64,000 nucleotides of DNA from Candidatus Moranbacteria bacterium GW2011_GWA2_39_41. Its GTDB lineage: Bacteria; Patescibacteriota; Minisyncoccia; Moranbacterales; UBA2206. The translations under genes and the position numbers were made by a program. Below, one piece after another: positions 19,676 to 53,749 of the stretch. The stretch spans positions 15,511 through 79,510 of the forward strand of contig LBXA01000001.1 of assembly GCA_000995125.1 (NCBI GenBank). Direction: 5' to 3'. Within the stretch, counting starts at the first letter, position 1; every line of letters begins with the position of its first letter. Under the pieces are notes generated by a model that was given only the letters and a program-made list of their open reading frames with translations, was not told the DNA's origin and ran no database searches.

Positions 19676-20218
19676 ATGAAGAGAAAAATATTCATCAATA
19701 TAAATTTACCGGATCGAACAAAAAAACGGCTAAGTAGAGCCATTGAAAGATGGGTGGATTTGCCGGTGAAGTGGGTGCGGGAGGAAAACCTGCATGTTTC
19801 TTTGTTTTTCCTGGGCTTTGTGGATGATGATTCGACCTATGAGGTGTGTGAGGCTGTCACTCGAGCGGCCCAAACAGAGGAGATTTTTGACATAGAATTC
19901 GACACTATCAAGCTCAGTCCATCAGCTGAGGATCCGCGAGTGGTTGTGGTGACTGGCAAGCCCAATGAAAACTTGCGCAACTTGGCGGAAAAAATTGAAA
20001 AAGAATTGGGCATTTTTACGAGCGCAAAAAAAGAATTTCGTCCCAACATCACTTTGGGCAAGGTTCGTAAAAATATTTGGCAAGACTTGTCAGAGAAGCC
20101 GGTGATCAATAAGGAGTTTCCTTTGCTGGCCACTGTAGAAAGTGTGGACGTGATGGCAAGCAACTTTGAGGGTGATGACGCTGAATTTGTGATTGTTGAA
20201 AGTTGTCAGTTAGTGTAG
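19676..20218 (+). CDS. 2H phosphoesterase superfamily protein (LigT/ThpR-like 2'-5' RNA ligase); the second HxT motif is degenerate
   Basis: The first motif is HVSLFFLG. The second position reads NITLGKV, with N in place of H. Confidence 0.55.
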   Translation: MKRKIFININLPDRTKKRLSRAIERWVDLPVKWVREENLHVSLFFLGFVDDDSTYEVCEAVTRAAQTEEIFDIEFDTIKLSPSAEDPRVVVVTGKPNENLRNLAEKIEKELGIFTSAKKEFRPNITLGKVRKNIWQDLSEKPVINKEFPLLATVESVDVMASNFEGDDAEFVIVESCQLV

Positions 20219-50999: not shown

Positions 51000-52493
51000 A
51001 TGTCCTATCAAATCGAAAACTTGTCCCCTCACAAAAAACAATTTCAAACCTCTGCTATGCAAGTTCCGGCTATCTTGCATGTCTCGGATGACTTGATGCC
51101 CAACGAGGCCACGTTGGCTGAAATTGAGGGCGTAGCTTCTGACCCGCATGCTTTTCATCATGTAGCTGCCATGTCTGACGTACACAGCAAAAAGGGCCGT
51201 AAGAACCCAACTGGCACCGTGATGGCCTCAGAGGACCATTTGTTGCCCCAAATCAATGATACGGCGCCCAATTGTGGTATGCGCTTTTTGAAGACCAATC
51301 TCACCGATGCAGATTTTACTCCAGAAAACATTGACCGACTTTTCCAAGAATTGATTGGTGTCATCCCAACCAAGGCTTATGTTGGCACCAAAATGCCCTA
51401 TTCTTTGATTATGGACATTTGCCGCAAAGGCATTGCGCCAGTGCGAGAATTTTTCCAAACTCGCACTAAAAATGAAATTGCAAACGCTTTCGAAGGTGGC
51501 AACTTTTTTTCTGAAATTCCCACGGAAAAAGAAATTCTCAATGCCATTCCAAAATTGTTTTTACACATTGGGCAATATCGTCTTGGCATCCTCGGCGCTG
51601 CTGGCAATCATTTCTTGGATTTGATGAAAATCACCGAAATTGAAAATCAAGAGATTGCTACCAAATTCGGATTGCAAACTGGGCAATATATTTTTTTGTT
51701 ACACACTGGCTCCGGACTTTTGGGGCAATACGCGTCATACCTTTATACGCCCAAAAGAAAAGAACACTTGAGCCAAAGAATTATCTTGGAAATTGGCAAA
51801 TTTCTTTTCAAGACAGATTATAAAAAAGAATTCAAAACCTTGTGGAAAAAAATTGAAAGTTTCAAGGACAGCAAAGAATATTTCGCCTATGATGACCAAA
51901 GCTTGGAAGGCAAACTCTTTTTGACTTCGCACAATGCCGCCGCCAATCAAGGCTATGCCAATCGTTCAATTTTGAATCATCAATTAGACTTGGCAATTGA
52001 AAAAGTTTTGGGCAAAAATCCAGAATTAGATATGCTCTATGACATGCCACATGTTTTTGTGCATCGGGAAAAAAATCATTTTGGCAAAGATGTTTGGGTG
52101 CATAGAAACGGCACTGTACGCGCCAATGGCCCAGCACGTATGAACCATCCATTGTTCTCCCAAACTGGTGAGCCAGTTTTCATTCCGTCTTCCATGAGCA
52201 CGCCGGCCTATATTTGCGCTGGGACTGACGCCAATGAATCTAGTTTCTTCTCAGCGAGTCACGGCACCGGTCGTCGCAGAGATCCCTTGGCTGATGCGAC
52301 GCATAATAGAGCGGAACTTTTCGACAAGCTCAAAGCAAGACAAGTCAAACTTTTCAATGCCAAATCCAAAGGCGTAGTCATGCAGGATAGTTCATACTAC
52401 AAAGATGTGGAAGAAGTCATCGCTGGCATGGAAGCCAATCAAATCGTCAAAGCCGTGGCCAAAATGGAACCAGTGGCAGTTTTGATGTACTAA
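51000..52493 (+). CDS. rtcB: RtcB-family RNA 3'-phosphate/5'-OH ligase (divergent)
   Basis: MSDVHSKKG...DTAPNCGMRF parallels RtcB PDxHxGyG...DIGCGM. HNAAANQGYA parallels HNHA. SHGTGRRRD parallels the HGAGR motif. Confidence 0.65.
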   Translation: MSYQIENLSPHKKQFQTSAMQVPAILHVSDDLMPNEATLAEIEGVASDPHAFHHVAAMSDVHSKKGRKNPTGTVMASEDHLLPQINDTAPNCGMRFLKTNLTDADFTPENIDRLFQELIGVIPTKAYVGTKMPYSLIMDICRKGIAPVREFFQTRTKNEIANAFEGGNFFSEIPTEKEILNAIPKLFLHIGQYRLGILGAAGNHFLDLMKITEIENQEIATKFGLQTGQYIFLLHTGSGLLGQYASYLYTPKRKEHLSQRIILEIGKFLFKTDYKKEFKTLWKKIESFKDSKEYFAYDDQSLEGKLFLTSHNAAANQGYANRSILNHQLDLAIEKVLGKNPELDMLYDMPHVFVHREKNHFGKDVWVHRNGTVRANGPARMNHPLFSQTGEPVFIPSSMSTPAYICAGTDANESSFFSASHGTGRRRDPLADATHNRAELFDKLKARQVKLFNAKSKGVVMQDSSYYKDVEEVIAGMEANQIVKAVAKMEPVAVLMY

Positions 52494-52591
52494 TCTTGAC
52501 ATTTCCTCAAAAACCAGTCAGACTTATAGGCGTTAAGAAAGAAAAAAATAACCAGTTCCTTTTTATAACCCATATTTCACGGAGGGAGCAG

Positions 52592-52852
52592 ATGAACAGC
52601 TATCATACATTTATAACAATACATGGACTTACTGTGGAAAAGGCTCTGGAATGCATGCAGGTAATGCGAAATTTTTTGCAAAAAACTATACCGGATGAAT
52701 GCAAGGGCGTTATTTACACTCATAATCCCGCGCCAGTATTCAATGATTTAGGTCAAGAAATAATGACCATTGAAATAACTGCACGGCCAAACCGTCGCTC
52801 GCAAATCACCGAACGTCTAGCACCCCTCGAGCTCAACATTCTTGAATCCTAA
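52592..52852 (+). CDS. Small hypothetical protein, possibly a truncated archease-like RtcB cofactor
   Basis: A strong RBS (ggagggagcagATG) is present. YHTFITIHGLTVEKALECMQ resembles the archease [21 protein letters not shown] pattern, and KGVIYTH resembles VKAITYH. This is weak by-eye similarity only. Confidence 0.3.
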   Translation: MNSYHTFITIHGLTVEKALECMQVMRNFLQKTIPDECKGVIYTHNPAPVFNDLGQEIMTIEITARPNRRSQITERLAPLELNILES

Positions 52853-52872
52853 CCCCAATTACGCATTTGTAT

Positions 52873-52997
52873 GCCTCAGTAGCTCAATAGGTGAAGCAAC
52901 TGATCATCTGACCGCTGGACAAGTGATTTTCCAGTGAGATGAAGCACCCTTTCTTGAGAAGATCAGAAAGCTGGAGGTTCGAGTCCTCTCTGGGGCT
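52873..52997 (+). tRNA. tRNA-like gene with roughly 50 extra nt in the anticodon arm (putative intron-containing tRNA; anticodon unresolved)
   Basis: The acceptor pairs GCCTCAG with CTGGGGC. The T-arm is GGAGG-TTCGAGT-CCTCT. The D-arm is class-II-like (GCT...GGTGA...AGC). The only anticodon stem is CTGAT(C) at 52900-52905 with (G)ATCAG at 52961-52966, about 55 nt apart. A terminator follows. Confidence 0.55.
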
Positions 52998-53007
52998 ATA
53001 CCCACAC

Positions 53008-53052
53008 CTGACTCGCCTCGCACGATTAACATCGTTGCGGGGCGTTTTTTAT
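53008..53052 (+). terminator. Rho-independent terminator (cgcacgat...atcgttgcg stem followed by a T-tract)
   Basis: Read directly from the sequence, immediately after the tRNA-like gene. Confidence 0.5.
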
Positions 53053-53110
53053 TCCTAGCTTTTGCGCCTGTTTTATGCTATGATTTTGGTATAAGAAAGT
53101 TAAATATCCT

Positions 53111-53749
53111 ATGAAAATTATCACTATTTCCGGCGTGGACGGATCAGGTAAATCGACCCAAATCAAGCTTCTACAAGAATATTTAGAATCGCGAGATATG
53201 CGGGTTTTTTATTTCCATGCCATTGAGTTTGGTTTGGCTACCAAACTAGCCGATTTCAAGAAAAAATATTGCCTGATTTGCAAAATCAAAGGTCTGTGCA
53301 ACATCAAATCGTCTGAAACAAAAAGTGTCACCAAGGCCAACTGGCTACAAATCCAACTACGCAAAATTTTTCTTCGCATCGATATTTTACGCTTCAAAAA
53401 ACTCATAAAAAAATTAGAGAAAGAAAAAATTGACTATCTTCTTAGTGATCGCTTTTTCTACGATTCAGTCGTCAACATCCACTATCTTGAAAATTCGGAC
53501 ATTAAAAATTCGGCTTTGATTCAAAATTCAAAATTCAAAATTCAAAATTCTTTTTATATGGACATATCTCCCGAACAAATCATGCAACGCGAAAGAAAAC
53601 CCGATCAAGGCCTGGAATATTTACAAAAAAAGACTGAACTGTTCAAGCAAAAAATTGAAGACTGGAATATGCAAATTATTGACGCCAATCAGTCTAAGGA
53701 GGAAATTTTCAATGCCATCAAGAGCATTGTGACTTTACGGACTTTATAA
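53111..53749 (+). CDS. tmk: Thymidylate kinase-like nucleotide kinase with a low-complexity insertion
   Basis: MKIITISGVDGSGKSTQ is the Tmk-type P-loop and LLSDRFFYDSVVN is a DRY-like motif. The protein is 212 aa, and IQNSKFKIQNS is encoded by an (AAAATTC)4 repeat. Confidence 0.55.
   Translation: MKIITISGVDGSGKSTQIKLLQEYLESRDMRVFYFHAIEFGLATKLADFKKKYCLICKIKGLCNIKSSETKSVTKANWLQIQLRKIFLRIDILRFKKLIKKLEKEKIDYLLSDRFFYDSVVNIHYLENSDIKNSALIQNSKFKIQNSFYMDISPEQIMQRERKPDQGLEYLQKKTELFKQKIEDWNMQIIDANQSKEEIFNAIKSIVTLRTL

Follow-up and report, generated by a model that had tools for sequence, protein, structure and literature searches.

A tRNA-like gene with an insertion in place of its anticodon loop lies in a variable slot next to rtcB in a Moranbacteria genome

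To our knowledge, introns in the transfer RNA (tRNA) genes of Bacteria are, as a rule, of the self-splicing kind only. Those reported from Patescibacteria are group I introns at position 35/36 (PMC13011429), and 'enigmatic introns' have been noted in the tRNAs of Lak megaphages (PMC6784885). In operons containing rtcB, which encodes an RNA ligase, tRNA-like Y RNAs and the sensing of tRNA fragments have been documented (PMC7790460), and the literature describes many anticodon-arm nucleases in phage conflicts. Here we describe a tRNA-like gene of 125 nucleotides (nt) from a 64-kb stretch of contig LBXA01000001.1 (referred to as the window), whose host belongs to Candidatus Moraniibacteriota (Parcubacteria, Candidate Phyla Radiation (CPR)). 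The gene follows rtcB and a small open reading frame (ORF), and a first-pass annotation of the same DNA had suggested that the three form an rtcB-archease-intron-tRNA module. The comparison with related genomes does not bear out such a module, and we give an even chance to a different reading, namely that a strain-specific accessory cassette was acquired at this locus and that its RNA derives from a tRNA but does not decode. Most likely, the cassette adjoins rtcB only because the slot happens to be there, and the adjacency is no evidence for a dedicated splicing or repair substrate.

The gene matches RF00005, the Rfam tRNA family, over the full model (positions 1-71) with 41.1 bits (gathering threshold 29; expectation value (E) 2.9e-5 for the whole window). 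ARAGORN run without its intron mode finds zero tRNAs in the 64 kb, and in intron mode (-i) it makes this gene its sole call; intron-mode ARAGORN and a covariance model were among the checks that the first-pass annotation had proposed. The acceptor stem and the T arm are as described there, on the evidence of both the RF00005 match and the sequence itself (Table 1). The D arm had been called class-II-like, and the C13-A22 mismatch does look so, but it alone, since the variable loop (AAGCU) has five nt and gives the gene a class I body. The tertiary nucleotides are in place (U8, A14, G18G19, A15:U48, G46, U54-A58 and G53-C61), the discriminator is a U at 52997, and CCA is not encoded. Judged from its sequence, the RNA gene is descended from a class I tRNA with an acceptor stem of the Lys, Asn, Thr, Arg kind.

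The anticodon arm is a different matter. The first-pass annotation had found no local anticodon hairpin, and indeed CUGAUC/GAUCAG, spanning 55 nt, is the only tRNA-type anticodon stem in the gene, in line with the silence of ARAGORN in its standard mode. In the canonical register, this stem consists of an A27-A43 mismatch and CUGA/UCAG, extended by U32-A and C33-G, so that there is neither a 7-nt anticodon loop nor a U33, the latter position being C. An insertion, an intron or a pseudogene had been thought necessary to account for this arrangement, and the RF00005 alignment does place a 58-nt insertion in the anticodon loop. No further copy of the insert exists within the window. In the minimum free energy (MFE) structure, the insert contributes to two hairpins. 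Hairpin A, in which the 3-nt bulge GAC separates a 6-bp helix (UCAUCU/AGAUGA) from a 7-bp one (CGCUGGA/UCCAGUG) that ends in a loop of 10 nt, looks like half of a bulge-helix-bulge motif, while the predicted hairpin B competes with the tRNA-type anticodon stem. The latter has a probability of ~0.017 (about 2%) in the free ensemble, where hairpins A and B are favoured, and a fold constrained to the cloverleaf is 3 kcal/mol worse than the MFE. As a whole, the RNA is no stabler than shuffled sequence (z -0.9). The gene thus appears to have kept the elements of the tRNA L-shape and to have lost a usable anticodon arm to 55-58 nt that are predicted to fold into hairpins of their own.

Removal of the insert does not restore a tRNA. 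Introns of groups I and II, ribozymes, YrlA and transfer-messenger RNA were all without a match at E<=10 in an Rfam search of 52400-53150, which assigned the insert to no family at all, and a group I or II intron is ruled out by the 48-58-nt length of the insert, too short for the core, together with the lack of an RF00028 match at the same threshold. The first-pass annotation had been unable to fold a convincing bulge-helix-bulge, and an exhaustive script likewise found no strict hBHBh' motif (two 3-nt bulges on opposite strands with a 4-bp helix between them) in the gene. The best relaxed version has an AUCU/AGAU helix, the 3-nt bulge GAC and the 7-bp inner helix, and its second 'bulge' measures 20 nt. 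Both anticodons that had been suggested can be obtained: ARAGORN -i yields tRNA-Leu(GAG) with a 48-nt intron right after the stem, and an alternative junction gives the loop AUCUGAA with anticodon CUG, but neither product is canonical. With the intron forced to position 37/38, ARAGORN instead yields Arg(UCU) with the loop CAUCUGG, again lacking U33. In a brute-force test, each 30-76-nt segment was deleted and the product rescored with ARAGORN. The best products score 114, with Ser-UGA, Leu-GAG, Phe, Gln-CUG/UUG and Lys as rivals among them; all are 73-79 nt long with 6-7 stacked layers in the anticodon stem, and the best junctions fall at positions 31-33. The same test on 100 insert-bearing tRNAs of phages gave a median of 119 and values up to 128 (controls at 117-128), mostly with one solution. 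As no deletion yields a canonical tRNA (the best score being 114, with an ambiguous anticodon and an over-long stem), the insert is not removable in a way that leaves a normal tRNA.

We compared 19 related rtcB loci (including L001-L012 and L255-L261; RtcB identity 61-96%), the 12 closest of which in GTDB genomes all come from metagenome-assembled genomes of Moranbacteria or Parcubacteria, or from mislabelled bins. The relatives share the order glycosyltransferase, rtcB, slot, thymidylate-kinase-like gene, flippase, and blastn synteny between the window and L001-L012 stops exactly at the slot. The slot is empty in five genomes (L005, L006, L010, L012 and L260). Where it is occupied, it holds at least six unrelated families of small ORFs, mostly on the same strand as rtcB, with strong ribosome-binding sites and terminators of their own (Table 1), and none of these ORFs is related to the one in the window. 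Across these genomes, the interval that separates rtcB from the thymidylate-kinase-like gene is an insertion-tolerant, hypervariable slot, a hotspot for small accessory genes. No tRNA, with or without an intron, lies within 2.5-4 kb of rtcB in any of the 19 loci (0/19), and the only carriers of the cassette are identical copies from the same population. Taken together with the unrelated contents of the slots, this makes the tRNA-like gene a feature of one population, and its adjacency to rtcB a reflection of the position of the slot; the proposed module is not conserved.

Table 1. Features of the tRNA-like gene, its slot and the neighbouring genes, with the slot contents of related loci (window positions unless a locus is named; nt in brackets count from the first nucleotide of the tRNA-like RNA)
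Feature	Coordinates	Strand	Basis or remark
tRNA-like gene, 125 nt	52873-52997	+	Rfam RF00005 and ARAGORN -i
Acceptor stem, GCCUCAG/CUGGGGC	52873-52879 with 52990-52996	+	7 pairs including U4-G69
D arm	52882-52897	+	three stem pairs and a C13-A22 mismatch
Anticodon stem, 5' strand, CUGAUC (nt 28-33)	52900-52905	+	cmscan alignment
Insertion replacing the anticodon loop, 55 nt (nt 34-88)	52906-52960	+	58 nt as counted by Rfam; 48-nt 'intron' in ARAGORN
Anticodon stem, 3' strand, GAUCAG (nt 89-94)	52961-52966	+	cmscan alignment
T arm, GGAGG-UUCGAGU-CCUCU	52973-52989	+	5/5 stem pairs
Predicted hairpin A (nt 32-70)	52904-52942	+	MFE; pair probabilities 0.79-0.99
Predicted hairpin B, CUUUCU/AGAAAG (nt 77-98)	52949-52970	+	pair probabilities 0.79-0.95
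Intrinsic terminator, 13-bp G+C-rich stem then U6	53014-53050	+	fold of 53014-53044
Strain-specific slot content: orphan ORF, tRNA-like gene, terminator	52494-53066		between rtcB and the thymidylate-kinase-like gene
Orphan 86-aa ORF	52592-52852	+	plausibly coding, atypical codon usage
Shine-Dalgarno of the 86-aa ORF, GGAGG, with the ATG six nt downstream	52581-52585	+	direct sequence reading
rtcB, 3'-phosphate/5'-hydroxyl RNA ligase, 497 aa	51000-52493	+	PF01139 profile match
Thymidylate-kinase-like P-loop gene, conserved downstream neighbour of rtcB	53111-53749	+	PF02223, 39 bits; synteny
Slot content of L002, L003 and L007: 66-aa ORF family	L002 5547-5747; L003 5549-5749; L007 5543-5743		
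Slot content of L011: 119-aa helical protein	L011 5538-5897		
Slot content of L001: opposite-strand Cys-rich ORFs			
Slot content of L255 and L256: 108-aa membrane ORF			
Slot content of L258 and L259: 124/148-aa family			
Slot content of L261: another 124-aa ORF			

Some of the other slot contents have features of their own. The 66-amino-acid (aa) ORF of L002, L003 and L007 (MMHISVCSF...SVWET.PD) lies directly 3' of rtcB in three Moranbacteria genomes with 56-59% identity, and is followed by a conserved hairpin and a terminator; the family lacks both a Pfam domain and further homologs. A hint from MAFFT that the insert might be homologous to the 3' untranslated regions of these ORFs turned out to be at chance level (p 0.47-0.91). 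By eye only, the 119-aa protein of L011 resembles the four-helix-bundle '23S rRNA intervening sequence' proteins.

The structure of the cassette is no assembly artefact, as the slot region recurs with 100% identity over 636 bp in assemblies from two other samples; the identical rtcB gene is also present on groundwater metagenome contigs. Groundwater data sets from which the population was assembled are SRR1658344 and SRR33189851. A look-up by identical RtcB yielded identical copies of the cassette only, and no sequence variants. The terminator that the first-pass annotation had placed after the tRNA-like gene is a strong one (-20.1 kcal/mol, z -4.6, with 0/200 shuffles equally stable), although the scanner used for terminators and promoters overlooked it owing to its limits on stem and loop. 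Its 3' end (GGCGTTTTTTATTCC) is common to the slot terminators of L002 and L003. The promoter scan returned no sigma-70 promoter. Since there is no terminator between rtcB and the cassette, the RNA is probably co-transcribed with rtcB and the ORF.

Under the accessory-cassette reading, we infer that the tRNA-like RNA is transcribed, processed and non-decoding. The rtcB-ORF transcript would probably run into the cassette, with the tRNA-like RNA as its tail and an end at 53050. RNase P could then cut at G52873 and the 3' end could be trimmed, two steps suggested by the intact acceptor/T-arm minihelix, possibly with addition of CCA, so as to release a stable, tRNA-shaped but non-decoding RNA of 125 nt. 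Several points weigh against this reading. The tRNA core is very well kept (all pairs are present in the acceptor, 7/7, and in the T stem, 5/5, as are almost all of the tertiary nucleotides), which would call for a recent origin or for selection on the L-shape and makes a long-dead pseudogene in a streamlined genome unlikely. The gene has the same orientation as rtcB and is probably transcribed with it, so a functional link may exist in this strain. On the 5' side of the insert, a 4-bp helix is followed by a 3-nt bulge, as in the canonical splice sites of archaea and eukaryotes, and this geometry would put the cut after loop position 6. Lastly, the cassette is known as one sequence variant only.

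The upstream gene is the RtcB that the first-pass annotation had taken it for. It matches PF01139 with 227.4 bits (E 4.9e-67), its best solved relative in the PDB is the RtcB of Pyrococcus horikoshii (133 bits), and its NCG, GNHF, HTGS and HGTGR motifs align with the metal-binding and guanylylation motifs of that enzyme. The profile match and the catalytic motifs mark the ORF as a bona fide RtcB. The 979 homologs are for the most part from Moranbacteria and Parcubacteria. In the window, rtcB is a solitary gene, flanked by a gene for a GT4 glycosyltransferase on one side and by the variable slot on the other; its neighbours, the glycosyltransferase and the kinase-like gene, are no RNA-repair partners, and a domain search of the neighbours combined with their synteny revealed no Ro60, RtcA, RtcR or PrfH gene adjoining it. 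An EndA domain was absent from the neighbours of rtcB and from ten ORFs of 129-187 aa, 64 kb of the genome being covered. At a distance of 31 kb from rtcB, the window encodes a 180-aa LigT/2H-phosphoesterase (19676-20218, + strand; PF13563 and PF02834), a member of the 2'-5' RNA ligase superfamily that, like RtcB, acts on RNA 2',3'-cyclic-phosphate ends.

The ORF between rtcB and the tRNA-like gene, which starts twenty nt past its stop codon, has the strong ribosome-binding site noted in the first-pass annotation. The faint resemblance to archease that was also noted there found no support. Archease (PF01951) is about 140 aa long, and the 86-aa ORF matches neither it nor any other Pfam family at E<=1, nor any PDB sequence at E<=10; among 5.8e9 clusters its only homolog is itself. 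An exhaustive phmmer search gave spurious repeat-protein matches only, to proteins of 1600-2600 aa, which we rejected as artefacts of internal repeats (insect-allergen, Big_9, Rib). The AlphaFold2 model is of low confidence (mean predicted local distance difference test score 66), with a beta-alpha-beta-alpha layout, and Foldseek returned generic ferredoxin-like matches only (E>0.01) and no archease. Membership of the 66-aa family of L002, L003 and L007 was likewise rejected, the two being unrelated. The codon score in frame is 0.106, as compared to 0.141 at the 5th percentile of window genes and -0.39 for the out-of-frame median; codon usage is thus coding-like yet below that of nearly all window genes, and the ORF is plausibly coding. 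Its start-codon region (52589-52599, CAGAUGAACAG) is complementary in 10/11 positions to 52900-52910 (nt 28-38 of the tRNA-like RNA). An inverted repeat connecting the two was considered and dropped, the number of such matches being about that expected by chance in the region. Overall, every sequence-level observation of the first-pass annotation could be reproduced save the resemblance to archease, and the interpretation given there is partly supported.

As to the origin of the RNA, the acceptor strand GCCUCAG occurs in metagenome tRNAs for Lys(CUU), Asn(GUU), Arg(UCU) and Thr, and in one of those for Lys(CUU) the anticodon stem CUGA/UCAG is shared as well. A pattern of D arm, insert and T loop had 0 matches in the metagenome contigs, and a looser one retrieved ordinary Lys, Asn, Arg and Thr tRNAs and two unrelated insert-bearing tRNAs. 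One of the two, a tRNA-Thr(UGU) (L171, 6668-6781), has a 39-nt insert at the canonical position 37/38 and agrees with the window element in both acceptor stem and discriminator; the other, a tRNA-Asn(GUU) (L143, 602-711), has an insert of roughly 37 nt in its D loop. No relative of the RNA or of the ORF was found in phage records (blastn) or in IMG/VR (protein and DNA scans), and no prophage genes occur near the cassette.

The search for relatives did, however, uncover a group of insert-bearing phage tRNA genes. The degenerate pattern matched at least 120 IMG/VR contigs (loci L013-L132), and 52 of 100 distinct phage tRNA-shaped genes with a long D-to-T stretch turn into high-scoring canonical tRNAs of many isotypes upon removal of 34-63 nt. 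In these 52 genes, the insert directly follows position 28 or 29 and thus interrupts the anticodon stem within its 5' strand. Two classes can be told apart: class A inserts form a hairpin followed by A(C/U)(A/U)GCAA (e.g. L046, L021, L031 and L024), and class B inserts end in GUUAC(U)U or GUUAU (e.g. L082, L014, L068 and L033). Rfam identifies the genes as 'tRNA' only, with 43-61 bits. The inserts have no consistent bulge-helix-bulge motif, the flanks examined contain no RtcB genes, and intron-less alleles, looked for in the case of two of these tRNAs, were not found. The only literature on such inserts that we found is the remark on Lak megaphages cited above (PMC6784885). From its insert site and motifs, the window element lies outside both classes.

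Because the L-shape is so well preserved, a functional mimic of a tRNA stays among the rival explanations, one that we regard as possible but rather doubtful. The RNA could be a non-decoding mimic acting in RNA damage, repair or defence, with the insert retained as an extended anticodon arm; it might, for example, lure or sense nucleases that attack the anticodon arm, or be bound by RtcB or its partners, by analogy with YrlA of rsr-rtcB operons. An intact core with a replaced anticodon loop, the stable hairpins predicted in the insert, probable co-transcription with rtcB together with a strong terminator, and a slot that behaves as an accessory island would all suit such a role, and the literature offers precedents in tRNA-like Y RNAs, tRNA-fragment sensing and anticodon-arm nucleases. 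However, the RNA does not match YrlA (RF02553) at E<=10 and its topology is unpermuted, unlike that of YrlA; there is no Ro60, RtcA, RtcR or PrfH gene adjoining rtcB, the metagenome pattern and viral scans, empty or with unrelated matches, provided no second example, and the 19 related loci show no link to RtcB. We consider it improbable that the gene encodes a real tRNA precursor, from which a protein endonuclease would cut an intervening sequence of 48-58 nt (the enzyme being of a relaxed bulge-helix-bulge type, or a different RNase whose products have 2',3'-cyclic phosphate and 5'-OH ends) and the co-transcribed RtcB would join the halves without archease. The ARAGORN -i call of tRNA-Leu(GAG) with a 48-nt intron is what such a precursor would give, and the AUCUGAA junction corresponds to a cut past the second nt of the 3-nt bulge after the 4-bp helix, the canonical geometry of a 5' splice site. 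The RtcB also appears catalytically intact and nearest to the archaeal splicing ligase, and short unexplained inserts in tRNA genes are known from bacterial viruses (PMC6784885). Against splicing stand the missing strict hBHBh' motif with its 3' 'bulge' of 20 nt, an ambiguous anticodon, products that all have an anticodon stem of 6-7 layers and non-standard spacers, and a class I body with discriminator U, odd for Leu. Nor did the neighbours and the ten small ORFs that were scanned include an EndA-like protein. The linkage to rtcB is unconserved, and the tRNA-type anticodon stem is thermodynamically disfavoured. A more specific version, in which a protein endonuclease recognises a relaxed bulge-helix-loop site in a CPR tRNA with a short non-group-I insert and the co-transcribed RtcB seals the halves into a working tRNA, is in our estimate very improbable; if true, Bacteria would have their first case of tRNA splicing that depends on proteins, and a bacterial RtcB would have a natural substrate.

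Two further explanations concern where the gene came from. It is unlikely to have come by horizontal transfer from the insert-bearing tRNA genes that are common in phage tRNA arrays, and to be processed by their route. At least 100 phage tRNA-shaped genes do have D-to-T inserts of 34-63 nt and Rfam scores of 43-61 bits, as compared to 41 here, and both the strain-specificity of the cassette and the atypical codon usage of its ORF would agree with acquisition from such a source. The inserts of the dominant phage classes lie after position 28/29 in the anticodon stem, however, whereas the best junctions here are at 31-33; the A(C/U)(A/U)GCAA and GUUAC(U)U motifs are absent from 52906-52960, phage records and IMG/VR contigs show no similarity to the cassette in DNA or protein, and there are no prophage genes nearby. 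We attach equally little weight to a decaying local rearrangement, in which a partial tandem duplication of a tRNA was fused into one functionless unit. One piece of the insert (AGAUGAAGCA) does resemble a piece of the D arm (AGGUGAAGCA) in 9/10 nt, and another (AUCUGACCGCUGGA) resembles the anticodon-3'/variable/T-stem piece (AUCAGAAAGCUGGA) in 11/14 nt. Yet the level of both self-similarities is that of chance or close to it (comparison with shuffles gives p of about 0.05 and 0.14), and the outer parts of the tRNA are undecayed.

Splicing of the RNA, if it took place, would overturn the rule that the tRNA introns of bacteria are self-splicing only, and would give a bacterial RtcB a housekeeping substrate. 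The evidence points away from splicing and towards a single-population tRNA derivative in an accessory slot, from which the practical lessons are modest: annotation pipelines overlook insert-bearing tRNA-like genes of this kind, adjacency to rtcB is by itself no evidence of function, and the Moranbacteria slot 3' of rtcB is a hotspot for small accessory genes. The phage by-product of this analysis may matter more, as it comprises dozens of tRNA genes with conserved short inserts in the anticodon stem and no known mechanism for their removal.

Among known systems, archaeal and eukaryal pre-tRNAs, which are processed by EndA/TSEN and RtcB with archease, resemble the window element in an interruption of roughly 50 nt in the anticodon region, in the 4-bp helix and 3-nt bulge on its 5' side, and in the archaeal-like RtcB gene immediately upstream. 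The window element differs in lacking a second 3-nt bulge and in giving no canonical tRNA after removal of the insert; moreover, its host is bacterial, no archease or endonuclease was seen in the regions searched, and the linkage to rtcB is unconserved. The group I intron-containing tRNAs of Patescibacteria and Cyanobacteria (PMC13011429) share with it hosts at the level of the phylum and an anticodon-loop insertion that eludes standard annotation, but the window insert has 48-58 nt, no group I core and a position other than 35/36. YrlA of the rsr-yrlA-rtcBA operons is likewise a tRNA-shaped, non-decoding RNA beside rtcB; it is, however, circularly permuted and needs Ro60 (Rsr), whereas the window element has its arms in normal order, no RF02553 match and no rsr neighbour. 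With the 'enigmatic introns' of Lak megaphages and the IMG/VR phage tRNAs it has in common a short non-group-I insert, a place in the bacterial world and no known splicing route, but the phage inserts form conserved classes at 28/29 and leave clean canonical tRNAs on removal, neither of which applies here. Finally, the tRNA-like gene is reminiscent of the tRNA pseudogenes and tRNA-derived fragments of accessory regions in being unique and strain-specific, in lying in a variable region and in having no usable anticodon arm; it is set apart from them by two complete and almost undecayed halves, a terminator of its own and an apparent operon.

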